Below, piece after piece: positions 1,764 through 30,565 of a DNA stretch of 30,565 bases. The notes under the pieces were generated by a model. That model ran no database searches and was not told the origin of the DNA. It saw nothing but the letters and a program-made list of their open reading frames with translations. Source of the stretch: a virus (lineage: Duplodnaviria; Heunggongvirae; Uroviricota; Caudoviricetes); the IMG/VR virus record IMGVR_UViG_2778261446_000008, positions 1 to 30,565 of that record; one strand, written 5' to 3'. The position numbers were made by a program, and so were the translations under genes. Every line of letters begins with the position of its first letter. The stretch's first letter is position 1.

Positions 1764-4174
1764 GTCATGCCGATATGAACAACTGCTGCGGCTTTAACGA
1801 GGCTGCCGCAGCGTTCTCATGGAACAGCCCGAAAAAGGCCATTAACCCTTATCTGGACCCGGCGGAAGTTGCGCCGGTTTCTGCGCTTTCAAACCTGATC
1901 ACTCTGTACGCTGCCGATAACGAGCAGGAACAACTGCGCCGCGAGGCACTGAGTGATCAGGTCTGGGAGCGTTATTTTTTTAATGAATCACGTGATCCTG
2001 TCCAGCGCGAAATGGAGCAGGATAAGCTCATTAGCCGGGCAAAGCTGGCGCATGAGCAGCAGCGTTTTAATCCGGATATGGTCATTCTGGCGGACGTCAA
2101 CGCCCAGCCTTCCCATATCAGCAAGCCGCTGATGCAACGTATTGAATACTTTAGCAGCCTGGGCAGGCCAAAGGCTTATTCCCGCTATTTACGTGAGACG
2201 ATTAAGCCATGTCTGGAACGACTGGAGCATGTACGCGACAGCCAGCTATCTGCATCTTTTCGTTTTATGGCAAGCCATGAAGGGCTGGACGGCCTGCTTA
2301 TCCTGCCTGAAATGAGTCAGGATCAGGTGAAGCGCCTGTCTACCCTTGTCGCTGCGCATATGAGCATGTGCCTTGATGCCGCTTGTGGTGATTTGTATGC
2401 CACCGATGACGTTAAGCCAGAAGAAATCCGCAAAACATGGGAAAAGGTGGCAGCGGAAACCCTGCGTCTGGATGTTATTCCGCCTGCGTTTGAGCAACTC
2501 CGTCGGAAAAGAAACCGCCGTAAACCCGTGCCCTATGAACTCATTCCGGGTTCGCTTGCGCGTATGTTGTGTGCCGACTGGTGGTATCGGAAATTATGGA
2601 AGATGCGTTGCGAATGGCGGGAAGAGCAGTTGCGTGCTGTCTGCCTGGTCAGCAAAAAAGCATCTCCCTATGTCAGCTATGAAGCCGTGATGCATAAACG
2701 TGAGCAGCGCCGCAAGTCACTGGAGTTTTTCCGTTCTCATGAACTGGTGAACGAAGAGGGCGACACGCTGGATATGGAAGACGTGGTAAACGCCAGCAGC
2801 AGCAACCCGGCGCACCGCCGCAATGAGATGATGGCCTGTGTTAAAGGTCTGGAGCTTATCGCGGAAATGCGTGGTGATTGCGCCGTTTTCTACACCATTA
2901 CCTGTCCGTCACGTTTCCATTCCACGCTCAATAACGGCAGACCAAACCCAACCTGGACAAATGCGACGGTAAGACAAAGCAGCGATTATCTGGTCGGCAT
3001 GTTTGCTGCATTTCGTAAGGCGATGCACAAAGCCGGGTTGCGCTGGTATGGCGTGCGGGTGGCTGAGCCGCATCATGACGGTACGGTTCACTGGCACCTG
3101 TTGTGTTTCATGCGCAAAAAAGACCGCCGTGCCATTACTGCATTGTTGCGTAAGTTTGCCATCCGTGAAGACCGCGAGGAACTGGGTAATAACACTGGTC
3201 CACGCTTTAAATCTGAGCTGATAAACCCGCGCAAAGGAACACCGACAAGCTACATCGCGAAATACATTAGTAAGAACATTGACGGGCGTGGTCTGGCTGG
3301 CGAGATCAGCAAGGAAACGGGTAAATCCCTGCGTGATAACGCTGAATACGTTAATGCCTGGGCGTCTCTGCATCGTGTTCAGCAATTCCGCTTCTTTGGT
3401 ATTCCGGGGCGTCAGGCTTACCGTGAACTGCGATTGCTGGCTGGTCAGGCGGCAAGGCAACAGGGCGACAAAAAAGCAGGTGCGCCGGTACTGGATAACC
3501 CGCGCCTTGATGCCATCCTGGCTGCTGCTGATGCTGGTTGTTTTGCCACTTACATCATGAAGCAGGGTGGCGTACTGGTTCCCCGCAAATATCACCTCAT
3601 CAGAACTGCTTATGAAATTAACGAAGAGCCGACCGCCTATGGCGATCACGGCATTCGTATTTATGGCATCTGGTCACCCATTGCAGAGGGCAAGATCTGC
3701 ACTCATGCAGTGAAGTGGAAAATGGTCCGTAAAGCCGTTGACGTTCAGGAGGCGGTAGCCGACCAGGGCGCTTGCGCCCCTTGGACTCGTGGCAATAACT
3801 GTCCCCTTGCTGAAAATTTGAACCAACAAGGGAAAGACAAATCAGCTGATGGGGATACCAGAACGGATATCACCCGCATGGATGACAAGGAGTTGCACGA
3901 TTACCTGCACAGTATGAGCAAAAAAGAACGCCGGGAACTGGCAGCAAGGTTACACCTGGTTAAACCGAAACGGCGTAAAGACTACAAACAGCGAATTACA
4001 GACCATCAGCGACAGCAGCTCGTGTATGAGCTGAAGTCCAGAGGGTTTGATGGTAGCGAGAAAGAGGTCGATTTACTCCTTCGCGGCGGCAGTATTCCGT
4101 CAGGAGCAGGCCTGCGTATCTTCTATCGGAACCAGCGTTTGCAGGAAGATGATAAGTGGCGAAACCTGTATTAA
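1760..4174 (+). CDS. A: replication initiation protein A (rolling-circle replication endonuclease, P2 gpA-like)
   Basis: 804-aa ORF at the position of P2 gene A; contains the active-site tyrosine motif [12 protein letters not shown] typical of P2 A / phiX A-family initiators. Confidence 0.85.
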
Positions 4175-4266
4175 TTACGATGGTTAACCATTCGTGCTCT
4201 TAATAATACCAGGCATATCAGGCTGATAAACGTAAAAAAACGTTTTACATCAGTAAGATTATTATA

Positions 4267-4286
4267 TACTGTAAATATAAACAGTG
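4267..4286. promoter_or_regulatory. LexA box (SOS operator) in the promoter region of the Tum/DinI-like operon
   Basis: Sequence tactgtaaatataaacagtg has CTGT (4269-4272), an 8-nt AT-rich spacer and ACAG (4281-4284), matching the consensus TACTGT-(AT)4-ACAGTA. It lies in an AT-rich intergenic region about 40 nt upstream of a strong RBS and ATG at 4328. Confidence 0.65.
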
Positions 4287-4327
4287 GTTATACATACAGT
4301 ATTGCGTGTGGTGTCATAGGAGGAAAG

Positions 4328-4516
4328 ATGCAGGACTATTTTTTGGAGTCTTTGAAGCTCCAGCGCATTGATTTTTTTCTTAAGCTTGTAGCGGCCAGTG
4401 AGTGTAGTGATGAAGAGAAGGGACTGGCTCTGCAGTGGGTTTCTGAATTGACTGATGAACTCATGGCAAAAATCAGAAGCCACGAATACAACCGCTCAAT
4501 GGATGTCATCAGCTGA
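4328..4516 (+). CDS. hypothetical protein; candidate N-terminal part of a Tum-like SOS-inducible antirepressor
   Basis: 62-aa ORF with a strong RBS (aggagg, 4318-4323) directly downstream of the LexA box; its 3' end overlaps the open frame of the DinI-like gene (4455-4516) in a +1 relationship. Confidence 0.5.
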   Translation: MQDYFLESLKLQRIDFFLKLVAASECSDEEKGLALQWVSELTDELMAKIRSHEYNRSMDVIS

Positions 4517-4983: not shown

Positions 4984-5085
4984 CGCGCGCTAACTCATAA
5001 ATCCTAGATTATTAGTGGATTTATCTCATTGAAATGTGCACTATTCCCAGCATTGAGTTGTACCAGATGTCTTTATGGAGGGACT

Positions 5086-6852
5086 GTGGCTTTTGTAACT
5101 GATATTCGGCTTGAAGATAATGCTATTGCTGCACCTGCGACAGCACAGGTTATGGCTCAGAGGCTAGGATCTGTATTACGTAAGAGATATGAAGAATTCA
5201 TCCATAAAAGAGAGTGTGCACCAGGCCAAGCAGACTATGATGTAAAAATGGCTAGCAGGGCTTTAGCCGCATTCACTATGTATCAGTTAGGATGTGTGGA
5301 TGATAAGTATGCAGGGGAGTCTGTATGTGATAGTAGTGAAGATGGTGGTATAGATGGAATAGCAATCAACCATAACGAAAAAATCGTTGTTGTTGTTCAA
5401 TCAAAATTTCACCAATCGGGAAACGGCACTTGGACAAGAGCCGATTTTATGTGTTTTAAGGATGCTTGTGAGAAGCTACAAAGTGAAAGATACGAATTAT
5501 TTGATTCCATATTGCAAAATAAAAGCGGGGAAATAAGTGCGGCTTTAAGTAGTTTTGAATACAAGTTCATCTTTGCGATGGCGCATACAGGTAAAAAAGG
5601 TGCTGCAGAGGAAATATTAAATGATATGCGGGAATGGCAATATCAATTAAACGCTGCAGCTTTTACACCTGAGGATGAGCCTAAAGAGAACTGGGGATTT
5701 CAGGTTCATTTAATATCCTCTGAAGATATGATGCATTGGTTACAGAATGGCTCTCGAAATCAAATTGATCTTAACAGGGTTGAAATTGAGCGTTTTGGAT
5801 TTTTGAATGAACCATATCAAGCTTTTTACGGGGCTATTAGTGGTGATCAAGTTGCAGAATGGTGGGAAGAGCATGGTGCTCGATTATTTACAAAAAACAT
5901 AAGGAATATGCTTGGTAAAACAGAAGTGAATGAGGAAATAAAAAAGACAGCTATAGATAATCCTGATATGTTTTGGTTTTATAATAATGGGATTACTGTA
6001 CTGGTTAAGGAAGTTGTTCCTCATAGACGAAACGCAGCTCCTAATATAGAGAGAGGGATTTTTGATTTTCGTGATGTAAGTGTCATTAATGGTGCACAAA
6101 CAGTCAGTAGTATTGGCGCATGTAAAGATGCGCTTGGTGAAAACATATATAGACTCAAAGTGCCAGCTAGATTCATTGTTATAGATGATGATACTGATAA
6201 TTTAACTGCAAATGCAATTACAAAAGCTAACAATTTCCAAAATAGAGTATTGGGAAGAGATTTTGCATCGCAGCAGGCAGATCAACATAGATTGGCAAGG
6301 GAGTTAGTGCTTGAAGGATATCAATATCAGTTACTAAGAACAGATGAAGATCATTCACAGACAAATACGAAAGTCATTGACTTGGATGAGGCGCTCAATG
6401 CACTCGCATGTTTAAGTAAAAATAATACGGTTGTATCGACACTAAAATCAAATCGCGGTAGGTTTTTTGAAAATTTTGAAGGCTCTCTATATAAAACTAT
6501 TTTCAATCCAAGATTAAGTGGTTTAAAACTTATCAATACTGTTCTACATTTTAGAGTTATAGATAAGTTGATCGGTAAAACATTACTATCAGTAGATAAA
6601 ACGACCCATAGTCGCAAGCATTTAATTATTACGCATGGTAATAGATACTATGCGTCTGTACTATTGAGCAACGTTTCTGGGATACATAATAGCTCAGAAA
6701 TTCTTGTTCCAGATGAAAAAAATCTTTCCGAAGAATTAAGTGCATTAATTCAACGTGCTGAAGAGTACATTGAAGATAATTACCCGAATGCCTATCCGGC
6801 AAGATTTTTTGCAAATCCAACGAAAATACAAGAGTTATACGATAATGTTTAA
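5086..6852 (+). CDS. AIPR-like putative abortive-infection protein with an N-terminal PD-(D/E)xK-like nuclease motif (candidate anti-phage cargo gene)
   Basis: Long ORF (track 5029..6852 from a TTG, 607 codons); plausible starts are GTG 5086 (RBS ggaggg 5077-5082) or ATG 5152. Markedly AT-rich relative to flanking phage DNA. Motifs: SEDGGIDGIAI...VVVQSKF (D...QxK nuclease-like) and a central FWFYNNGITVL / INGAQT block that I recall as AIPR-like. Lies between cos and Q and ends at a strong terminator. Confidence 0.6.
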   Translation: MAFVTDIRLEDNAIAAPATAQVMAQRLGSVLRKRYEEFIHKRECAPGQADYDVKMASRALAAFTMYQLGCVDDKYAGESVCDSSEDGGIDGIAINHNEKIVVVVQSKFHQSGNGTWTRADFMCFKDACEKLQSERYELFDSILQNKSGEISAALSSFEYKFIFAMAHTGKKGAAEEILNDMREWQYQLNAAAFTPEDEPKENWGFQVHLISSEDMMHWLQNGSRNQIDLNRVEIERFGFLNEPYQAFYGAISGDQVAEWWEEHGARLFTKNIRNMLGKTEVNEEIKKTAIDNPDMFWFYNNGITVLVKEVVPHRRNAAPNIERGIFDFRDVSVINGAQTVSSIGACKDALGENIYRLKVPARFIVIDDDTDNLTANAITKANNFQNRVLGRDFASQQADQHRLARELVLEGYQYQLLRTDEDHSQTNTKVIDLDEALNALACLSKNNTVVSTLKSNRGRFFENFEGSLYKTIFNPRLSGLKLINTVLHFRVIDKLIGKTLLSVDKTTHSRKHLIITHGNRYYASVLLSNVSGIHNSSEILVPDEKNLSEELSALIQRAEEYIEDNYPNAYPARFFANPTKIQELYDNV

Positions 6853-18121: not shown

Positions 18122-19695
18122 GCACAAAATTTTATACCCTGCTGACGGATATTGGCGCGGCGAAACTTGCCAGCGCCGCCGCGCTCGGTGTGCCGCTAAA
18201 AATTACCCATATGGCGGTGGGCGATGGCGGTGGAGTATTGCCAACGCCGGACGCAAAGCAGACGGCACTGGTAAATGAGAAACGCCGGGCTGCGCTGAAT
18301 ATGCTTTATATCGACCCGCAGAACAGCAGCCAGATTATTGCCGAACAGGTGATCCCTGAAAACGAGGGCGGTTGGTGGATACGTGAAGTGGGCTTGTTTG
18401 ATGAGTCCGGGGCATTGATTGCCGTGGGCAACTGCCCGGAAAGCTATAAGCCGCAACTGGCTGAAGGTAGCGGGCGCACTCAGACCGTGCGCATGGTGCT
18501 GATTACCAGCAGCACGGACAATATCACCCTGAACATCGACCCTGCCGTAGTGCTGGCAACCCGCAAGTATGTGGATGATAAGGTACTGGAGCTGAAGGTG
18601 TACGCGGATGATCAGATGGCAAAACATCTTGCCGCACCGGACCCGCATTCACAGTACGCGCCAAAAGCCAGCCCGACATTTACCGGAACCCCCAAAGCGC
18701 CAACGCCAGCGGCGGGGGATAATACCACGCAGGTTGCGACCACTGCGTTTGTACAGGCGGCACTGACGGCCCTTATTAATGGTGCGCCAGCCACGCTGGA
18801 CACGCTGAAAGAAATAGCCGCAGCCATTAACAATGATCCGAATTTCAGTACCACCATTAACAATGCGCTGGCACTAAAAGCACCGTTGTCGAGTCCGGCA
18901 CTCACCGGAACGCCAACAGCCCCCACGGCGGCGCAGTCGGTCAACAATACACAGATTGCCACTACGGCTTTTGTGAAATCGGCGATTGCAGGAATGGTGG
19001 GTTCTGCACCTGCTGCACTGGATACACTGAACGAACTGGCGGCGGCACTGGGGAATGATCCGAACTTTGCCACGACAATGCTTAATGCGCTGGCAGGTAA
19101 ACAACCGCTGGACAATACGCTTACCAATTTGAGTGGAAAGGATGTAGCTGGTCTTCTCGCATACCTTGGTTTGGGAGAAGCGGCAAAAAGCAGGGTTCTT
19201 CAGAGCGGAGGAGATTCAGTTAAAGACGTCATGAGCCAGAATGCCATTACTTACCTGCTTTCCTTGAAAGCAGGTGTTAACGGTGAAAGAGTAGAGGCTG
19301 AAAACTTCAGAGAAGCCCTGAATTTGGGTAACGCGGCATTAAAAAACACAGGAACCGGGCAAGGGCAATTGCCTGATATGTCTGCATTTTTATCTAATCA
19401 AGAAGTGAATGGCTATCAGTATCTTCCTGGTGGGCTAATTCTTCAATGGGGAAACACACCATGTGAAGACCGGCGTACAACCGTTTCAAAGTTCCCGATA
19501 CCCTTTCCAAACGAATGCTTAATGGTCATTGTGTGTGGTTTTCAGGTGGCAGGAACCTACCAGGCTTATACGGTGGTAAATGGGGAATGGAACGACCAAT
19601 TCTCATGGAACGCCTTTTACGCGCAGTCTGGAAATATTCCTGTCCTTGCCGCAGCGGGACAGGTTAACGCCCGGTTTTTAGCTATAGGGAGATAA
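18118..19695 (+). CDS. H: tail fibre protein H: constant N-terminal part plus currently expressed variable C-terminal (receptor-binding) part
   Basis: N-terminus MSTKFYTLLTDIGAAKLA...ITHMAVGDGGG is the conserved P2 H N-terminus; three tandem tail-fibre collar repeats (TGTPKAPT.../LDTLKEIAAAINNDPNF). The C-terminal ~170 aa lie inside the invertible segment. Confidence 0.9.
   Translation: MSTKFYTLLTDIGAAKLASAAALGVPLKITHMAVGDGGGVLPTPDAKQTALVNEKRRAALNMLYIDPQNSSQIIAEQVIPENEGGWWIREVGLFDESGALIAVGNCPESYKPQLAEGSGRTQTVRMVLITSSTDNITLNIDPAVVLATRKYVDDKVLELKVYADDQMAKHLAAPDPHSQYAPKASPTFTGTPKAPTPAAGDNTTQVATTAFVQAALTALINGAPATLDTLKEIAAAINNDPNFSTTINNALALKAPLSSPALTGTPTAPTAAQSVNNTQIATTAFVKSAIAGMVGSAPAALDTLNELAAALGNDPNFATTMLNALAGKQPLDNTLTNLSGKDVAGLLAYLGLGEAAKSRVLQSGGDSVKDVMSQNAITYLLSLKAGVNGERVEAENFREALNLGNAALKNTGTGQGQLPDMSAFLSNQEVNGYQYLPGGLILQWGNTPCEDRRTTVSKFPIPFPNECLMVIVCGFQVAGTYQAYTVVNGEWNDQFSWNAFYAQSGNIPVLAAAGQVNARFLAIGR
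19154..19179. repeat. candidate 26-bp invertase crossover site 1 (gix/hix/cix-like) inside gene H
   Basis: TTCTCGCATACC-TT-GGTTTGGGAGAA: near-palindromic 12-2-12 architecture resembling Hin/Gin/Cin crossover sites; located at the constant/variable junction of H. Confidence 0.5.
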
Positions 19696-19698
19696 TGT

Positions 19699-20121
19699 AT
19701 GTACATATTTGACAACAAAACGCAGTGTTTTTTCCCTCTCGCATTGAAAGACAGATATATTGCTGCCGGAACATGGCCGGAGAATGGCGTTGAGGTGGAT
19801 GACGATACTTTCTCCGAATTCCAGGTGCCGCCAGCAGGGAAAATGAGAGTTGCAGGCAGTGACGGCCTGCCTGCATGGGGTGATATCCCGCCGCCCACCC
19901 ATGAAGAATTGATCACCATTGCTGAACAGGTGCGCCAACAGCTGCTGACTCATGCTGACGCGGTAATGCTCGACTGGCGAACGGAACTAATGCTGGATGA
20001 AATCAGCGACACCAACAGAGCTAAACTGTCGGCATGGCTGGCGTATAAGAATGAAGTTAAGGCGGTTGATGTGACAACCAACCCTGAGCATATTAACTGG
20101 CCTGTTCCCCCGGAGGTGTAG
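19699..20121 (+). CDS. G: tail fibre assembly protein (P2 gpG-like)
   Basis: 140 aa; follows H after a 3-nt gap; C-terminal ...NWPVPPEV resembles the conserved tfa C-terminus. Confidence 0.8.
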   Translation: MYIFDNKTQCFFPLALKDRYIAAGTWPENGVEVDDDTFSEFQVPPAGKMRVAGSDGLPAWGDIPPPTHEELITIAEQVRQQLLTHADAVMLDWRTELMLDEISDTNRAKLSAWLAYKNEVKAVDVTTNPEHINWPVPPEV

Positions 20122-20509
20122 GCCATACGGGTTTTGCTGTATCAACCCGCATTAACAGTACCCGGTACTTCTTCCACTCAGACAACGCGGCGGTTTCCTC
20201 ATCCGTCGCGATATCCGCGTCAACAGCATCCTGTCGCCAGGCTATTTCAGAATCCGCCCGCGTACGTAAATCACGTCGTGTTTGCTCAGCCCGGGCAACT
20301 CGTTCTTCAGGCGACAGGGAGGGGATGTCAACCCACACAGGATAACCATTATTATCCGTTCCCAGCATTTTCCCTTCCGGTGGGTACTGGCTATAAACAG
20401 CCATTGCCTCATCACTCACATCGGCAGCATGTTCCGGCCACGTTCCGGCAGAAACATAGGCATCTTTAAGTGCTTCCGGATAAAAAACACCCTGATAAAA
20501 TTTATTCAT
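20093..20509 (-). CDS. alternative tail fibre assembly protein (tfa'), expressed after inversion
   Basis: 138-aa product from ATG 20509 (MNKFYQGVFYPEA...WPTPPGEQAS), homologous to G; the track ORF 20093..20650 reads through from the upstream alternative fibre segment. ATGA overlap with the alternative H segment. Confidence 0.7.
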   Translation of the reverse strand: MNKFYQGVFYPEALKDAYVSAGTWPEHAADVSDEAMAVYSQYPPEGKMLGTDNNGYPVWVDIPSLSPEERVARAEQTRRDLRTRADSEIAWRQDAVDADIATDEETAALSEWKKYRVLLMRVDTAKPVWPTPPGEQAS

Positions 20510-20958
20510 AAATACCCCACAGCGAAGAAACAGCAATCTTCCACCGCCCCTGCTGGCGCCCAGTTTTGGATCCTGATTTGAGACCGATTTTCTATACTGA
20601 CATTCATTGACTGGCTGTAGCCATTCGCTGCTCTGCATCCCATAGCCCACAGACCTGCGGTTGGAAATGCATAGGGCAGGTTGTAGATATTATTCTCTCC
20701 GCCGCGTGTCCGTATGGTTCCCCACTGCAGCATTATCTTTACCGGATTATCTGTGGTTGCAAGACAAGGAATATACAAATAGCCATTTCCACCGGCGAAG
20801 AAAGAGAAATCTGATGCACTCAATACCTGATTTTTTCCCACTCCCATAGAGGCCAGTGCCGCCGTACCAAGCTGAAGGGCATTTCTGAAAGCGGCCACAT
20901 TCTGAATATCACCACCGTTTGCACTTTTCTGCATCGCTCCAGCGGCCTGTTTTACCGT
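20506..20958 (-). CDS. alternative tail-fibre variable C-terminal segment (Hv'), promoterless and startless; fused in frame to constant H after inversion
   Basis: The minus-strand ORF (track 20506..21012) is homologous to the current H C-terminus (RNALQLGTAAL vs REALNLGNAAL; LQWGTI vs LQWGNT). The reading frame across crossover site 2 matches the H frame across site 1. Confidence 0.65.
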   Translation of the reverse strand, partial: TVKQAAGAMQKSANGGDIQNVAAFRNALQLGTAALASMGVGKNQVLSASDFSFFAGGNGYLYIPCLATTDNPVKIMLQWGTIRTRGGENNIYNLPYAFPTAGLWAMGCRAANGYSQSMNVSIENRSQIRIQNWAPAGAVEDCCFFAVGYL

Positions 20959-20984
20959 TTCTTCCAAATGAACGTTTAAGAAAA
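20959..20984. repeat. candidate 26-bp invertase crossover site 2 (inverted relative to site 1)
   Basis: TTCTTCCAAATG-AA-CGTTTAAGAAAA; its reverse complement matches site 1 at 17 of 26 positions with identical central TT; about 55 bp upstream of the invertase gene. Confidence 0.45.
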
Positions 20985-22930: not shown

Positions 22931-23446
22931 ATGGCTTTACCACGCAAATTAAAACACCTGAACCTGTTTAATGACGGGAACAACTGGCAGGGGATCGTTG
23001 AGTCGCTGACGCTGCCGAAATTTACCCGCAAATATGAGAAGTATCGCGGCGGCGGAATGCCGGGTGCAGTGGATGTGGATCTGGGGCTGGATGACGGCGC
23101 ACTGGATACGGAATTTTCCATTGGTGGTACTGAACTGCTGCTGTTTAAGCAGATGGGCAAAGCCACGGTGGATGGTATCCAGTTGCGCTTTACCGGCTCT
23201 ATCCAGCGTGACGATACCGGGGAAGTGCAGGCCGTGGAGCTTGTGGTGCGTGGACGTCACAAAGAAGTGGATTCCGGCGAGTGGAAGACGGGCGAAAGCA
23301 ACACCACCAAAGTGACCAGTACCAACAGCTACGCGAAGCTGACTATAAATGGTGAGGTGCTCTATGAAGTGGACCTTATCAACATGGTGGAAATTGTGGA
23401 CGGTGTGGACCTGATGGAAGCGCACCGCAACGCCCTCGGCCTCTGA
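22931..23446 (+). CDS. FII: tail tube protein (P2 gpFII-like)
   Basis: 171-aa ORF after the sheath gene; P2 synteny and size. Confidence 0.9.
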   Translation: MALPRKLKHLNLFNDGNNWQGIVESLTLPKFTRKYEKYRGGGMPGAVDVDLGLDDGALDTEFSIGGTELLLFKQMGKATVDGIQLRFTGSIQRDDTGEVQAVELVVRGRHKEVDSGEWKTGESNTTKVTSTNSYAKLTINGEVLYEVDLINMVEIVDGVDLMEAHRNALGL

Positions 23447-23500
23447 TGTATCTGAACGGCGCGGGATACCGCGCCAGAACCCAATTTACAGGACAGCAAA

Positions 23501-23803
23501 ATGAGCGATAAGCAGACTGAAAAGACTATTCAACTGGATACCCCCATCAAGCGCGGTAAAACAGAAATCACCGAAATTGTGCTGCGTAAACCGCAGTCCG
23601 GTGCGCTGCGCGGTACACGCCTGCAGGCCATTATGGATATGGATGTGAACGCGATGATGACCGTGATCCCCCGCATCTCCAGTCCGGCACTGACTGCACA
23701 GGAAATTGCAGAGATGGACCCGGCAGATCTCACTGCCATGTCGGTTGAGGTTGTCACTTTTTTGTTGAAGAAGTCGGTGCTTGCCGGTTTACCGACAGCC
23801 TGA
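23501..23803 (+). CDS. E: tail assembly chaperone E (P2 gpE-like)
   Basis: 100-aa ORF before the tape-measure gene; contains the slippery heptamer T-TTT-TTG in frame near its 3' end. Confidence 0.85.
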   Translation: MSDKQTEKTIQLDTPIKRGKTEITEIVLRKPQSGALRGTRLQAIMDMDVNAMMTVIPRISSPALTAQEIAEMDPADLTAMSVEVVTFLLKKSVLAGLPTA

Positions 23804-23937
23804 CGGTTGACGATCTGGTGGCTGATATCGCCACCATCTTTCACTGGCCGCCATCCGTTACTGACGTTATGCCGCTGACCGAAGTGCTGGAATGGCGGTA
23901 TAAAGCGATTCAGAGAAGCGGGGCCAACGATGAGTGA
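23501..23937 (+). CDS. E+E' frameshift product (programmed -1 frameshift at 23758..23764)
   Basis: Slippery sequence TTTTTTG at 23758-23764 in X-XXY-YYZ register; the -1 frame is open from there to TGA at 23935-23937, overlapping the T start, as in P2. Confidence 0.7.
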
Positions 23938-26900
23938 TAATAACCTGCGCCTGCAGGTCATTCTTAATGCGGTTGACAAACTCACCCGCCCATTCCGTGC
24001 TGCACAGGCCAGTTCGAAAGAGCTGGCTGGCGCAATTCAGAATACCCGAAACAGCCTCAAAGAACTGAATAAGCAGGCTGGCAGAATTGATGAATTTCGC
24101 AAGACGCGCTCGCAACTAGCCATAACAGCCAACAACCTGAACGCAGCCCGCGAAGAGGCGGCAAAACTCGCCACACAATTTGCTGCCACTAACAGGCCAA
24201 CCGCCGCGCAGGCAAAGTTATTCAGTCAGGCCAAAACACGAGTACAGGAACTTCAGCAGACCTATAACGGCTTGTTGGGGGCGGTCCAGAGACAACGTCA
24301 GGCACTTAAAGAATCAGGGATTGATACCAGACAACTCAGTAGTGCCCAGCGAGAACTTAAGAAAAATGCCGAAGAAACTCGTCAGGCACTAGAGGGCCAG
24401 CAAAAAGCACTTAAACGTCTGGGTGAACAACAGGCACGGATGAACGCTGCCAGAGAACAATACTCAAGACGGCTTGAAGTGCGCGATCGCATCGCAGGAG
24501 CCGGAGCCACCACCACGGCTGCAGGGCTGGCAATGGGCGCGCCAGTGATGGCGGCGGTAAAAAGCTATACCAGCATGGAAGATGCCATGAAAGGTGTGGC
24601 AAAGCAGGTCAATGGTCTGCGTGACGATAATGGCAACCGCACTGCGCGTTTTTACGAAATGCAGGATGCCATCAAAGCTGCCAGTGAACAGCTGCCAATG
24701 GAAAACGGTGCTGTGGACTTCGCCGCACTGGTTGAAGGTGGTGCGCGCATGAATGTGGCAAACCCTGACGACAGCTGGGAGGACCAGAAACGTGACCTGC
24801 TGGCCTTCGCCAGTACGGCAGCAAAGGCGGCAACAGCCTTTGAGCTGCCAGCGGATGAACTGTCAGAAAGTCTGGGGAAAATCGCCCAGCTCTACAAAAT
24901 ACCAACCCGCAATATTGAACAGCTCGGTGATGCGCTGAACTATCTGGATGATAACGCTATGTCGAAAGGGGCAGACATCATTGATGTCATGCAACGCCTG
25001 GGCGGTGTGGCTGATCGTCTGGATTATCGTAAAGCGGCGGCGCTGGGTTCCACCTTCCTGACACTGGGGGCTGCGCCGGAGGTCGCTGCCAGTGCTGCCA
25101 ACGCGATGGTGCGTGAATTGTCCATTGCGACCATGCAAAGCAAGAGTTTCTTTGAAGGAATGAATCTGCTGAAACTCAATCCTGAAGTGATTGAAAAGCA
25201 GATGACGAAGGATGCGATGGGAACTATCCAGCGCGTACTGGAGAAGGTGAACGCACTGCCGCAGGATAAGCGCTTGTCTGCCATGACCATGTTGTTTGGT
25301 AAAGAGTTTGGCGATGATGCGGCGAAACTGGCAAACAACCTGCCGGAACTGCAGCGCCAGCTAAAACTGACAGCGGGCAATGATGCGCTCGGTTCGATGC
25401 AGAAAGAATCCGACATTAACAAGGACTCACTTTCTGCGCAGTGGTTGTTGGTCAAAACCGGAGCGCAGAACACCTTCAGCAGCCTGGGCGAAACGCTGCG
25501 CCAGCCGCTGATGGATATTCTGTACACGGTGAAAAGCATCACGGGGGCGTTGCGTCGCTGGGTGGAAGCTAACCCTGAACTGACGGGCACACTGATGAAA
25601 GTAGCCGCGGTTGTGGCTGCTGTTACTGTGGGCCTCGGCACCCTGGCTGTGGTGTTGGCTGCTGTGCTGGGGCCGCTGGCAGTCATCCGTCTGGGATTCT
25701 CTGTGCTGGGTATCAAAACGTTACCTTCCGTTACGGCAGCAGTAACGCGAACCAGCAGCGCGTTGTCCTGGTTGGCTGGCGCACCACTTGCACTGCTGCG
25801 ACGCGGGCTTGCTTCATCGGGCAACGCCGCAGGTTTACTTACTGCACCGTTGTCGTCTTTGCGCCGCACGGCATCACTGACGGGAAATGTCCTGAAAACT
25901 GTAGCAGGTGCGCCGGTTGCACTTTTGCGGTCTGGATTATCCGGTTTACGTGCTGTTGCTGTGATGTTTATGAATCCTCTGGCGGTACTGCGCGGTGGAC
26001 TGGCCTCCGCAGGCACGGTGCTGCGAGTACTGGCATCTGGTCCACTGGCGATGCTGCGCGTTGCCCTGTATGCCGTATCTGGTCTGTTAGGTGCTCTGCT
26101 CAGTCCGATAGGTCTTGTGGTTACTGCACTGGCGGGCGTGGCGCTGGTTGTCTGGAAATACTGGCAACCCATCACCGCATTTCTTGGTGGCGTGGTGGAA
26201 GGATTCAAAGCGGCGGCAGGTCCCGTCAGTGCAGCATTCGAACCGCTTAAGCCCGTGTTCCAGTGGATTGGCGACAAAGTACAGGCGCTGTGGGGCTGGT
26301 TTACTGATCTGCTGACGCCCGTTAAGTCGACCTCTGCCGAACTGCAGAGTGCAGCGGCAATGGGGCGACGATTCGGGGAGGCACTGGCGGAAGGGCTGAA
26401 TATGGTCATGCATCCGCTGGACTCCCTGAAATCCGGCGTTTCCTGGTTGCTGGAGAAACTCGGCATTGTCAGTAAAGAGGCTGCAAAGGCGAAACTGCCG
26501 GAAAGAGTGACGCGTCAGCAACCTGCGACGGTGAATGCAGACGGTAAAGTGATGATGCCACCGGGTGGTTTTCCGTCATGGGGATATGGCTTTGCGGGGA
26601 TGTATGACAGCGGCGGCTATATCCCGCGCGGGCAGTTTGGCATCGTCGGTGAAAACGGGCCGGAAATTGTTAACGGCCCGGCAAATGTGACCAGCCGGAG
26701 AAATACAGCTGCACTGGCTGCCGTTGTTGCCGAAATGATGGGCGTTGCTGCCGCGCCTGCAGAGCTTCCACCGTTGCATCCTTTGGCACTTCCCGCGAAA
26801 GGCGGCGAAGCGATGGTGAGTCGTGCAGCCACTGTACCGCCCGTTCACCGGATTGAGGCACCGACGCAGATCATCATTCAGACGCAGCCAGGACAAAGTG

Positions 26901-27007
26901 CGCAGGATATTGCGCGGGAGGTGGCACGCCAGCTTGATGAACGTGAACGCAGGCTGAAGGCAAAAGCCAGGAGTAACTACAGCGATCAGGGGGGATACGA
27001 CGCATGA
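23930..27007 (+). CDS. T: tail tape measure protein (P2 gpT-like)
   Basis: 1025-aa ORF; N-terminal coiled-coil, central hydrophobic Gly/Ala/Leu-rich repeats (ALLRRGLASSG..., ALLRSGLSGL..., AVLRGGLASAG...); position between E/E' and U. Confidence 0.9.
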   Translation: MSDNNLRLQVILNAVDKLTRPFRAAQASSKELAGAIQNTRNSLKELNKQAGRIDEFRKTRSQLAITANNLNAAREEAAKLATQFAATNRPTAAQAKLFSQAKTRVQELQQTYNGLLGAVQRQRQALKESGIDTRQLSSAQRELKKNAEETRQALEGQQKALKRLGEQQARMNAAREQYSRRLEVRDRIAGAGATTTAAGLAMGAPVMAAVKSYTSMEDAMKGVAKQVNGLRDDNGNRTARFYEMQDAIKAASEQLPMENGAVDFAALVEGGARMNVANPDDSWEDQKRDLLAFASTAAKAATAFELPADELSESLGKIAQLYKIPTRNIEQLGDALNYLDDNAMSKGADIIDVMQRLGGVADRLDYRKAAALGSTFLTLGAAPEVAASAANAMVRELSIATMQSKSFFEGMNLLKLNPEVIEKQMTKDAMGTIQRVLEKVNALPQDKRLSAMTMLFGKEFGDDAAKLANNLPELQRQLKLTAGNDALGSMQKESDINKDSLSAQWLLVKTGAQNTFSSLGETLRQPLMDILYTVKSITGALRRWVEANPELTGTLMKVAAVVAAVTVGLGTLAVVLAAVLGPLAVIRLGFSVLGIKTLPSVTAAVTRTSSALSWLAGAPLALLRRGLASSGNAAGLLTAPLSSLRRTASLTGNVLKTVAGAPVALLRSGLSGLRAVAVMFMNPLAVLRGGLASAGTVLRVLASGPLAMLRVALYAVSGLLGALLSPIGLVVTALAGVALVVWKYWQPITAFLGGVVEGFKAAAGPVSAAFEPLKPVFQWIGDKVQALWGWFTDLLTPVKSTSAELQSAAAMGRRFGEALAEGLNMVMHPLDSLKSGVSWLLEKLGIVSKEAAKAKLPERVTRQQPATVNADGKVMMPPGGFPSWGYGFAGMYDSGGYIPRGQFGIVGENGPEIVNGPANVTSRRNTAALAAVVAEMMGVAAAPAELPPLHPLALPAKGGEAMVSRAATVPPVHRIEAPTQIIIQTQPGQSAQDIAREVARQLDERERRLKAKARSNYSDQGGYDA

Positions 27008-27489
27008 TGATGGTGCTGGGATTGTACGTGTTTATGCTGCGCACCGTTCCGTATCAGGAACTGCAGTATCAACGCAGCTGGCGACATGCGGCAAACAGCC
27101 GGGTAAACCGTCGTCCGTCCACGCAATTTCTGGGACCGGACAACGACATGCTGACGCTTTCTGGTGTTCTTATGCCGGAGATAACGGGCGGCAGGCTGTC
27201 GTTGCTGGCTCTGGAGCAGATGGCAGAACAGGGAAAAGCATGGCCCCTGATTGAAGGCAGCGGCACGATTTACGGCATGTATGTGATTGAGGGACTGAAT
27301 CAGACTAAAACGGAGTTTTTCCGCGATGGTATGCCGCGCCGGATTGAGTTTACCCTGTCGCTCAAACGGGTGGATGAATCCCTGTCCGATATGTTCGGTG
27401 ATCTCAGTGCACAGCTGAATAATTTGCAGGATACGGCAACGTCTGCCTTAAGCGATATCAGTAAAACGGTGGGAGGGCTGCTGTCGTGA
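27004..27489 (+). CDS. U: tail protein U (P2 gpU-like)
   Basis: 161-aa ORF overlapping the T stop; P2 U is of similar size. Confidence 0.85.
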   Translation: MMMVLGLYVFMLRTVPYQELQYQRSWRHAANSRVNRRPSTQFLGPDNDMLTLSGVLMPEITGGRLSLLALEQMAEQGKAWPLIEGSGTIYGMYVIEGLNQTKTEFFRDGMPRRIEFTLSLKRVDESLSDMFGDLSAQLNNLQDTATSALSDISKTVGGLLS

Positions 27490-28586
27490 ATTTCAGCTCT
27501 GAACTGCTTAACAAAGGCAACAAAACTCCCGCATTCAGCATCAGTATTGAGGGGAAGGATATCACCACTGTGCTGGACAAACGCCTGATGGGGCTTACGC
27601 TGACGGATAACCGGGGCTTTGAAGCGGACCAGCTTGATCTGGAGCTGGACGACGCCGACGGAAAAATCGTGCTGCCGCGCCGTGGTGCGGTCATTACGCT
27701 GGCGCTGGGCTGGAAGGGGCAGCCGCTTTTCCCGAAAGGGGCATTCACGGTGGACGAGATTGAACACACTGGTGCACCGGATCGCCTGACTATCCGGGCG
27801 CGAAGTGCGGATTTTAGGGAAACGCTGAATACCCGCCGTGAAAAATCGTGGCATAAGACCACCGTCGGGGAAGTGGTGAAGGAAATAGCCGCGCGGCACA
27901 AGCTGAAGATGGCACTGGGTAAAGACCTGTCGGATAAGCCCGTGGAGCATATAGACCAGACTAATGAGAGTGACGGCAGTTTTCTGATGCGGCTGGCGCG
28001 ACAGTACGGTGCCATCGCGTCGGTGAAAAATGGCAATCTGTTATTCATCCGGCAGGGGCAGGGCAAAAGCGCCACTGGTAAACCTCTGCCAGTGATCACT
28101 ATCACACGCAAGGACGGCGACAGTCACCGATTTACCCTGGCAGATCGCGGAGCCTACACGGGCGTAATTGCCAGCTGGTTGCATACCCGCGAACCTGCGA
28201 AGAAAGAAAGCACCACGGTGAAGCGTAAGCGCAGAACTAAGAAGCAGAAGAAAGAGCCAGAAGCGAAGCAGGGCGATTACCTGGTGGGTACGGATGAAAA
28301 CGTGCTGGTACTTAATCGCACTTATGCCAACCGGAGCAACGCCGAACGAGCGGCGAAAATGCAGTGGGAACGCCTGCAACGCGGCGTTGCGTCATTTTCT
28401 CTACAACTGGCAGAAGGGCGGGCAGATCTCTACACGGAAATGCCTGTGAAGGTCAGTGGTTTTAAACAGCCGATAGATGATGCGGAATGGACCATTACGA
28501 CTCTGACACATACCGTCAGCCCGGATAACGGTTTTACAACCAGTATTGAACTCGAAGTGAAGATTGATGATCTTGAAATGGAATAA
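27486..28586 (+). CDS. D: tail protein D (P2 gpD-like, late control gene D)
   Basis: 366-aa ORF between U and ogr; P2 synteny. Confidence 0.85.
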   Translation: MNFSSELLNKGNKTPAFSISIEGKDITTVLDKRLMGLTLTDNRGFEADQLDLELDDADGKIVLPRRGAVITLALGWKGQPLFPKGAFTVDEIEHTGAPDRLTIRARSADFRETLNTRREKSWHKTTVGEVVKEIAARHKLKMALGKDLSDKPVEHIDQTNESDGSFLMRLARQYGAIASVKNGNLLFIRQGQGKSATGKPLPVITITRKDGDSHRFTLADRGAYTGVIASWLHTREPAKKESTTVKRKRRTKKQKKEPEAKQGDYLVGTDENVLVLNRTYANRSNAERAAKMQWERLQRGVASFSLQLAEGRADLYTEMPVKVSGFKQPIDDAEWTITTLTHTVSPDNGFTTSIELEVKIDDLEME

Positions 28587-28654
28587 AGTGTTCTCAATAT
28601 TGATATTTTGTGTATCATTACAATGATTCTGATAGCAAAGGTAGGGATCTGGAT

Positions 28655-28873
28655 ATGATGAATTGTCCAAAGTGTGGTCATGCGGCACACACAAGGAGCA
28701 GTTTTCAAGTAACTGAAAGCACCAAAGAGCGTTACTGCCAGTGCCAAAATATTAACTGCGGGAGTACTTTTGTTACCCATGAAACAGTGGTCCGGTTTAT
28801 TGTGACACCCGCACTGATTGCTACTGCTCCTCCACATCCATTGCCAGGTGGTCAGGGGCATATGAATTTTTGA
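28655..28873 (+). CDS. ogr: Ogr/Delta-family zinc-finger late transcription activator
   Basis: MMNCPKCGHAAHTRSS...KERYCQCQNINCGSTFVTHETV matches the P2 Ogr zinc-finger pattern (CPxC...H...KERYHQCQNVNCSATF); 72 aa; RBS gtaggga upstream. Confidence 0.9.
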   Translation: MMNCPKCGHAAHTRSSFQVTESTKERYCQCQNINCGSTFVTHETVVRFIVTPALIATAPPHPLPGGQGHMNF

Positions 28874-28880
28874 GAAAGAG

Positions 28881-28904
28881 AACCTGCTACGGCAGGTTTT
28901 TATT
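28881..28904. terminator. bidirectional terminator between ogr and the WYL-BRCT gene
   Basis: aacctgc-tacg-gcaggtt hairpin followed by TTTTATT on the + strand; located between convergent stops (28873 and 28900). Confidence 0.65.
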
Positions 28905-29382
28905 CATCTGGGATCTCACCCGTTTCAAGAAAATGTATAAAGCCAGGCTCATCTATGATGATTGTGCCTTTCATCCTGGCTGCCGATACTTTTGATGGGC
29001 CTGCATTGTAACCGCAACAGAGCATCTGAAGGCTTTGGGTTACAGAGGTTCTTACCGTTAATCCTTGTTCATTCGCCTTATCAACCAATCTTTCTTTATC
29101 TGCTTTCTTAAATCCGGTGAAACACACATCGAATGTATTTTTTTTCGGACCAGACTGCTTGGTGAGATGTGAGTAGTTTTCGGGGAGGAATGACGCGCAC
29201 TCCTGAATGGCTTGTTCTGGTGAATCGTACTGTTTAAGAATGCGGTCTTTTCGGAAGGTTTTTATTCGATCGGTGTTCTTACAAATGCCCTGTATATGAT
29301 TTTCGCTATAACTGATGCTCTGTATAGAGTGAACACCGATACGACCATTTGCATTGATGTAAACAAAGTGAAGTTCTTCCAT
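28900..29382 (-). CDS. small WYL-domain plus BRCT-domain protein (cargo gene between ogr and the ssrA junction)
   Basis: 160 aa; N-terminal half has a WYL-like signature (FVY...G...R.FRKDRI); C-terminal half has a BRCT-like pattern (NTFDVCFTGF...LTVRTSVT...CCGYNAGPSKVSAARMKGTIIIDEPGFIHFLETG). RBS agagg 6 nt before the ATG; AT-rich composition. Confidence 0.6.
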   Translation of the reverse strand: MEELHFVYINANGRIGVHSIQSISYSENHIQGICKNTDRIKTFRKDRILKQYDSPEQAIQECASFLPENYSHLTKQSGPKKNTFDVCFTGFKKADKERLVDKANEQGLTVRTSVTQSLQMLCCGYNAGPSKVSAARMKGTIIIDEPGFIHFLETGEIPDE

Positions 29383-29462
29383 GTGAAACCTCTTTGCATG
29401 ATTTCAAGATGGCGACAGGCAAGATAGACGCAAAAGTCTGTCGCCATTTTGCCGCCACTACT

Positions 29463-29496
29463 AAAGAAAAAGGGGCTACGCTTTCACGTAACCCCT
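29463..29496 (-). terminator. rho-independent terminator downstream of ssrA
   Basis: On the minus strand: hairpin aggggUUacg / cgUagcccc (one G-U wobble) followed by a U-rich tract (UUUUUCUUU), immediately 3' of the tmRNA CCA end. Confidence 0.6.
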
Positions 29497-29505
29497 TGAT
29501 TTATT

Positions 29506-29868
29506 TGGTGGAGCTGGCGGGAGTTGAACCCGCGTCCGAAATTCCTACATCCTCGGTACTACATGCTTAGTCAGTCTTTACATTCGCTTGCCAGCTGCGG
29601 ACGGACACGCCACTAACAAACTAGCCTGATTAAGTTTTAACGCTTCAACCCCAGGCAGGGCTTCCACGCGATCTCTTTTGGGTTTGACCTCTCTTGATCC
29701 CCGTCCTAAGAGCGGAGGCTAGGGAGAGAGGGCTCTAAGCAGGTTATTAAGCTGCTAAAGCGTAGTTTTCGTCGTTTGCGACTATTTTTTGCGGCTTTTT
29801 ACGAGGCCAACCGCCCCTCGGCATGCACCTTGGGTTTCGCAAATCCCGTCGAATCCAGAATCAGCCCC
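29506..29868 (-). ncRNA. ssrA: tmRNA (SsrA, transfer-messenger RNA)
   Basis: The reverse complement reads GGGGCTGATTCTGGATTCGACGGGATTTGCGAAACCCAAGGTGCATGCC...GCAAACGACGAAAACTACGCTTTAGCAGCTTAA...GGTTCAACTCCCGCCAGCTCCACCA, i.e. the enterobacterial tmRNA including the tag-peptide reading frame (ANDENYALAA) and the tRNA-like 3' end. Confidence 0.95.
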
Positions 29869-30082
29869 AATGTGTAAAGGTAAGTATACCAGATTTATGA
29901 GCGCCATGACCAGCCTCAATGGCGTTATCGTTAAAGATTTAGCACCCATGTAGCCTGATTTTTATTCGATTAAGCAATGGGATGGCAACATTTGTGTCGG
30001 ATGTGATAGCCAATAAGATGTTCATTCGCGCCGCCGGAGAGGGAGGCGCGGTGAGGAACTGGTCAATAATTGGAGTGCAGGT

Positions 30083-30565
30083 TTAACGGTGGGCGTTTTT
30101 CATGATACGCGCTTTATCCACCTGCCATTCGCGCTCTTTGATATCTGAACGTTTATCGTGCTGTTTCTTACCTTTGGCGACGCCGATTTTCACTTTGCAC
30201 CAGGCATTTTTCCAGTACAGGGAGAGCGCCACTACGGTATAGCCTTCTCGATTGACGCGACCGTACAATGAGTCCAGTTCGCGCTGGTTGAGAAGTAACT
30301 TGCGGGTACGGGTAGGATCGCACACCACATGCGTGGAGGCCACTGCCATTGGCGTGATGTTTGCGCCAAACAGGAACGCTTCTCCGTCACGCAGAAGGAC
30401 ATAGCTGTCGCTGATATTGGCTTTTCCTGCGCGCAGGGATTTAACTTCCCAGCCTTGCAGGGCAAGTCCCGCTTCGAACTCTTCTTCGATAAAGTATTCG
30501 TGACGGGCGCGCTTGTTAAGCGCGATGGTCGCTGAACCAGGTTTATGTGCTTTTTTCTTCGTCAT
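30083..30565 (-). CDS. smpB: SsrA-binding protein SmpB
   Basis: 160-aa product [56 protein letters not shown]... matches E. coli/Salmonella SmpB as I recall it; located upstream of ssrA on the same strand. Confidence 0.95.

Follow-up and report, generated by a model that had tools for sequence, protein, structure and literature searches.

A prophage that directly adjoins an intact bacterial RNA gene raises the question of how much of that gene, and of the sequence flanking it, belongs to the host and how much was supplied by the phage. Here, the question is posed by a stretch of DNA of 30,565 nt (the window), whose right-hand part leads from the late genes of a P2-like prophage into the tmRNA gene ssrA. 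The role of ssrA as a busy attachment site, the regeneration of its 3′ end and the provision of terminators by the integrated elements are all established. The analysis described below indicates that the locus is very probably the ssrA-proximal junction of a P2-like prophage (Peduoviridae), nearest to Escherichia phage Cartapus and equipped with an integration module of the SopEPhi/Fels-2 type.

The prophage end and its host neighbours

On the host side, ssrA occupies 29506-29868 on the minus strand and is recognised as an intact tmRNA gene by both ARAGORN and Rfam RF00023. The Rfam match scores 295.8 bits (gathering score, 47) and covers model positions 1-374 without truncation, and the encoded tag peptide is ANDENYALAA (ARAGORN). 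The gene is identical to that of E. coli K-12 over its entire length (363/363 nt), and the 241 nt upstream of it are likewise identical in K-12 and the window. A consensus scan predicts a sigma-70-like promoter in this upstream host DNA (29883-29912, minus strand), composed of TGGTCA-18-TATACT with an extended TG. The host gene smpB, the partner of tmRNA, is found at 30083-30565 on the same strand (Pfam SmpB, E 1.5e-57) and is also annotated at the locus in K-12 and in E. coli E308.

On the phage side, the P2-family late-gene activator ogr lies at 28655-28873 on the plus strand (Pfam Ogr_Delta, E 9e-21), and the original prediction of an intact ssrA abutted by the ogr end of a prophage is therefore borne out by ARAGORN, by the full-length Rfam match and by the Pfam assignment. 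Immediately to its left, a gene for a gpD-like late control/tail protein (27486-28586, plus strand) is colinear with gene D of E308 and Cartapus and forms part of a P2-like late operon that runs to ogr. More generally, the order of portal/terminase genes, tail genes, gpD, ogr and att is of the P2 type and colinear with both E308 and Cartapus. The late genes in the window are all full-length open reading frames and are colinear with those of the functional phage Cartapus, and the early region shows mosaicism with P2-like phages that have different att sites. To the right of ogr, a hairpin terminator predicted by scan and by sequence to act in both directions (28881-28898) separates it from a convergent gene of 160 codons, the last phage gene before attP.

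Colinearity with E308 is interrupted in two places, at 19180-20959 in the tail-fibre/invertase region, presumably the usual variation of the host-range cassette, and at 24042-24472 inside the tape-measure gene. Another variable position is marked by a low-GC (34-38%) cargo gene at 5029-6852 on the plus strand, which encodes an AIPR-family protein (Pfam E 7e-35) and is located between the replication and portal genes, a known cos-adjacent defence hotspot of P2-like phages; the same slot of E308 holds a P-loop NTPase instead.

The attachment core inside ssrA

The host/phage boundary is defined by comparison with related phages. Cartapus (Elveevirus cartapus, NC_070909) is a free phage in which attP is unintegrated and int lies on the other side. 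It matches the window at 96.5% identity over 23400-29550, a segment that includes ogr, the 160-aa gene, the P arm and the core, with zero extension beyond its right-hand limit. The match to the window also ends at 29550 in the free Yersinia phage vB_YpM_MLG42 (MLG42) and in the prophage-derived records of SopEPhi, RE2010 and SEN8, and the boundary is therefore placed 45 nt inside ssrA. Approached from the host side, the identity between K-12 and the window ends 2 nt past the CCA of ssrA, the two sequences differing from the third base. The interval 29502-29550 is the sole block common to host and phage, and it represents an att core of 47-49 nt, as defined by the direct repeat of E308 and by phage comparison, made up of the last 45 nt of ssrA and the 4 nt that follow the CCA. 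Its 47 nt at 29504-29550 are invariant in all phages compared (Cartapus, MLG42, SopEPhi and RE2010), and the SopEPhi record both starts and terminates with a copy of this 47-nt core, whereas the RE2010 record terminates with one. The 5′ 318 nt of ssrA (29551-29868, minus strand) are surely host-derived, since the Cartapus attP diverges right after 29550, and the terminator and trailer at 29460-29501 are phage-arm DNA that falls outside the repeat.

The position initially proposed for the core, at or near 29480-29520, overlaps the actual one but is displaced by about 20-30 nt into the phage arm. Two accompanying proposals hold: the sequence 3′ of ssrA is phage-derived, as judged from its identity to Cartapus and its departure from K-12, and the 3′ end of the gene is regenerated from phage DNA in the Fels-2 manner, the attP of the free phage holding the last 45 nt. 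The strand-exchange point would lie somewhere within 29502-29550, and its position inside the core cannot be specified because all core copies are identical.

These observations can be assembled into a mechanism that starts from the attP of the phage, in which 47-49 bp duplicating the ssrA 3′ end are set between two arms. One arm bears a pair of TGYCGCCA repeats and the terminator; the other bears a second repeat pair, with a cargo gene and int beyond it. Strand exchange by the phage tyrosine integrase would take place within the block that is identical in attP and in the 3′ end of ssrA. After integration, the first 318 nt of the gene would be host DNA; the phage would have contributed the trailer, the terminator and as many as 45 nt of the 3′ end, without any change in the tmRNA sequence. 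The original 3′ end, displaced along with its old terminator, would then be found next to the cargo gene and int at a distance of ~34-36 kb.

The phage arm and the 160-aa gene

The phage arm beside the core supplies ssrA with a predicted intrinsic terminator (29460-29497, minus strand). The hairpin and U tract run from 29497 to 29470 on the minus strand, with a tail to about 29460, and begin 9 nt past the CCA of ssrA. The scan describes a hairpin of 12 G+C-rich pairs with a loop of 4 and the tail TTTCTTT, and the fold z-score is -5.3; both agree with the terminator originally placed at 29463-29496. The hairpin is kept in Cartapus, MLG42 and SopEPhi and is absent from K-12, and CTGTCGCCATTTTGCCGCCAC, which accompanies it next to the core, is conserved together with it in the same three phages. 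A C/T difference among the phages within the hairpin produces a G-U or an A-U pair on the minus strand and a C-A mismatch on the plus strand; only minus-strand pairing is thus preserved, which fits a function in the direction of ssrA. In the circular phage, as seen in Cartapus, the hairpin is located downstream of cI-int-cargo-attP on the same strand and would therefore be able to serve both forms. Terminators supplied to ssrA by integrated elements have been described earlier.

The same arm carries candidate arm-type integrase sites, namely the direct pair TGTCGCCA / TGCCGCCA, 11 bp apart, at 29439-29457 on the plus strand. This pair is kept in 4/4 phages, and a similar pair is present on the P′ arm of Cartapus, MLG42 and SopEPhi and on that of the E308 attL. 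Arm-type sites of this integrase family look like paired direct repeats on both arms, and the TGYCGCCA pairs are putative sites of this kind. Since the 8-mer by itself is unspecific, the motif search counting 13 occurrences over the window where 3.7 are expected, the assignment draws its support solely from the paired and conserved placement on both arms. A third copy, inverted, is found at 29410-29417 (minus strand; motif search and fold), where it forms with 29438-29447 a 10-bp inverted repeat that closely precedes the ribosome-binding site of the 160-aa gene on the upstream side. Cartapus has this inverted copy, and SopEPhi, in which the 160-aa gene is itself missing, does not.

The 160-aa gene (28900-29382, minus strand) was described in the original prediction as WYL-BRCT. 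Its product belongs to PHROG 2561, labelled 'DNA ligase', and the database labels 'DNA ligase' and 'exonuclease' attached to this gene are explained by the BRCT domain alone. A BRCT fold is indeed found in the C-terminal part (Pfam PF00533), and the predicted model is confident (pLDDT 91), with an N-terminal half that forms a five-stranded barrel. The protein of the window has no direct WYL match in Pfam, NCBIfam or PDB sequence searches; Pfam WYL (PF13280) is matched by 4 of its 49 homologues. The combined name thus appears reasonable, its BRCT half being confirmed and its WYL half tentatively suggested by the modelled barrel and by these four homologues. Further copies of the gene occur at 4001-4486 of locus L011, at 4001-4483 of locus L013 and at 5501-5983 of the Cartapus locus (L002).

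The location of this gene relative to the integration module differs among P2-like elements. In P2-like prophages of Yersinia ruckeri and Pectobacterium, a homologue lies directly after cI and before int on the same strand, and P2-related Vibrio phages have a diversity hotspot at the post-cI position (PMC9122126). In Cartapus, the 160-aa gene is on the strand of cI, int and the cargo gene, but across attP, and integration therefore moves it behind the ssrA terminator. Indeed, in the prophage it is found 124 bp (29383-29505) downstream of ssrA, behind the phage terminator, and the inverted pair of putative Int arm sites extends over its upstream region. ssrA is very strongly transcribed. It is conceivable, if rather improbable, that integration rewires the 160-aa gene, so that its expression in the lysogen would depend on read-through of the ssrA terminator or on Int occupancy. 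If so, Int occupancy would constitute a switch specific to the form of the phage, prophage or circular, following a logic analogous to that of lambda sib. Read-through from ssrA into a prophage gene, speA, has been reported in S. pyogenes M1UK (PMC9951164).

The distal junction and competing readings

The other end of such a prophage can be examined in relatives of the window. The right junction recurs in E. coli E308, which is 99.6% identical to the window over 28600-30565 and has TATTTGGTGGAGCTGGCGGGAGTTGAACCCGCGTCCGAAATTCCTACAT as its core. Two exact copies of this 49-nt sequence, in direct orientation, delimit the E308 prophage at a distance of 34,484 bp, and next to the distal copy come, in this order, the P′ arm, the cargo gene gapS1, the site-specific integrase gene and cI. 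The E308 integrase is 96% identical to that of Cartapus, 95% to that of MLG42 and 93% to that of SopEPhi, which identifies the integration module as that of SopEPhi/Fels-2. Of the complete E. coli genomes, 5426 in number, 180 contain the P arm, core and ssrA junction and 208 the core with P′ arm. Pairing was judged from positions in the genomes found in both lists, and paired junctions 23-36 kb apart are seen in XJW9B263, ETEC4089, A37, M2, CFSAN061761 and 33-6. An integrase at the ssrA-distal end, as originally proposed, is thus supported by the core repeat and int of E308, 34.5 kb away, and by these six further genomes. We infer that a distal junction exists in the window's own strain as well.

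The region between int and attP constitutes another slot with variable cargo, occupied by GapS1 in E308 (L001 6878-8398), a RES-domain protein in Cartapus (L002 6271-7476) and orfY in SopEPhi (L007 161-1372). Beyond the distal junction of E308, a CP4-57-like terminator and int are encountered, and the elements at ssrA therefore form a tandem array. Many E. coli genomes also retain a fossil of this phage arm where the ssrA island array ends on the side away from ssrA. It consists of an arm repeat, the terminator hairpin and ~17 nt from the start of the core, beyond which the sequence diverges, and in E308 (L001 2575-2650) and E300010 (L009 4001-4076) it lies between ypjC and a pin-like recombinase fragment. 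It resembles the right end of a SopEPhi-type prophage of earlier date that a CP4-57-type insertion nearer the ssrA 3′ end would have displaced.

The left end of the window bears on the integrity of the prophage. Positions 1-73 contain the last 22 nt of tnpB/insQ and the right end, finishing in TCAA, of an IS200/IS605 element inserted at the fil/DUF5347 overlap of the prophage, where E308 reads ...gttccat|taagcccc... The insertion gives the open reading frame at 22-381 a chimeric N-terminus. An exact-protein look-up of this IS/phage fusion found no match for the 119-aa form, and the 104-aa form matches one short-read contig, the sole public contig with this IS/phage joint, which begins at window position 48. 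The IS end itself matches at 100% in more than 190 E. coli records, many of them plasmids, and in the filamentous phage If1. Positions 1-70 have no match among P2-like phages, which might suggest a mosaic or truncation boundary, but they correspond to the IS200/IS605 right end. The best E. coli match to the left 9 kb of the window, MSB1_9D, is a related prophage at rcdA with another integrase, and it is therefore uninformative on the left junction.

Because the window starts within the IS element, the prophage is at least interrupted and could be left-truncated. It is on this observation that the most serious alternative is built, according to which the junction is genuine and the prophage a defective remnant, its int, cI and attL having been lost or separated by an IS-mediated rearrangement, so that a fixed scar incapable of excision would be left. 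The insertion of tnpA/tnpB-type IS200/IS605 DNA in the fil/DUF5347 region speaks for such a history, as does the fact that no complete E. coli genome carries the IS at this prophage position; in addition, the junctions of strain 33-6 are just ~23 kb apart, and shortened versions therefore exist. Against it, the late genes described above are full-length and colinear with those of functional Cartapus, no direct sign of truncation is seen, and IS200/IS605 insertion as a rule occurs without large deletions. A defective remnant is therefore unlikely, and the prophage may merely be interrupted, left truncation being the less likely outcome; in either case the right junction is of the same nature.

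Less probable still is a hybrid in which homologous recombination or inversion joined the right end of an ssrA prophage to another P2-like prophage, leaving no matching distal att. Raw material for such an event is available, since P2-like prophages whose early and late genes are 97% identical occupy other sites, for example beside rcdA, with a different integrase, and many E. coli genomes hold more than one of them. However, colinearity between the window and the E308 ssrA prophage extends throughout, except for the cargo and tail-fibre cassettes, no breakpoint is seen near the right end, and both junctions are present in the sister genomes found in both lists. Finally, integration downstream of ssrA rather than inside it, with the whole gene host-derived and a purely intergenic att site, has a negligible probability: ssrA is unchanged relative to K-12, so that the gene alone reveals no phage contribution, but the idea is refuted by the attP of Cartapus and MLG42, which hold the last 45 nt of the gene, and by the distal junction of E308, which repeats them.

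The reading as an ssrA-proximal junction of a P2-like prophage is best appreciated by comparison with known systems. SopEPhi and Fels-2 (Felsduovirus, Salmonella) use ssrA as their integration site (PMC3448106), and the biology of this junction is already known from them. The window shares with them the identical 47-nt core and the P-arm terminator and TGYCGCCA repeats, and its sister prophages share the P′-arm repeats and a 93% identical integrase; ogr is ssrA-proximal and int distal in both cases (PMC3448106). In contrast, the host here is E. coli, the 160-aa WYL-like/BRCT gene is intercalated between ogr and the P arm, which follow each other directly in SopEPhi, and the remaining genome is just ~79% identical to SopEPhi at the DNA level. 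Cartapus and E308 differ from each other in their int-side cargo, a RES-domain protein versus GapS1. The cryptic CP4-57 element of K-12, with its P4-family integrase IntA, likewise uses ssrA as its attachment site and brings its own downstream sequence and terminator; unlike the present prophage, it encodes an integrase of a different family, its int lies directly beside ssrA rather than distally, and its overlap with ssrA is much shorter, the annotated start being 15 nt before the end of the gene. P2-like phages of the 186/HP1 type, which target tRNA genes, resemble the present prophage in having a long core that reaches the 3′ end of an RNA gene, in regenerating that gene and in possessing an integrase of the same family (PMC3448106). 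In the present case, however, the target is the tmRNA gene, and the 5′ limit of the core falls in the stem that pairs the tmRNA ends, not in the anticodon loop.

The junction adds no new principle to what has been established for elements integrated at ssrA. It delimits the prophage and leaves the tmRNA gene intact, and the last 45 nt of ssrA, together with the terminator, may be phage DNA, which is useful to know when strains are compared, genes annotated or prophage boundaries called.
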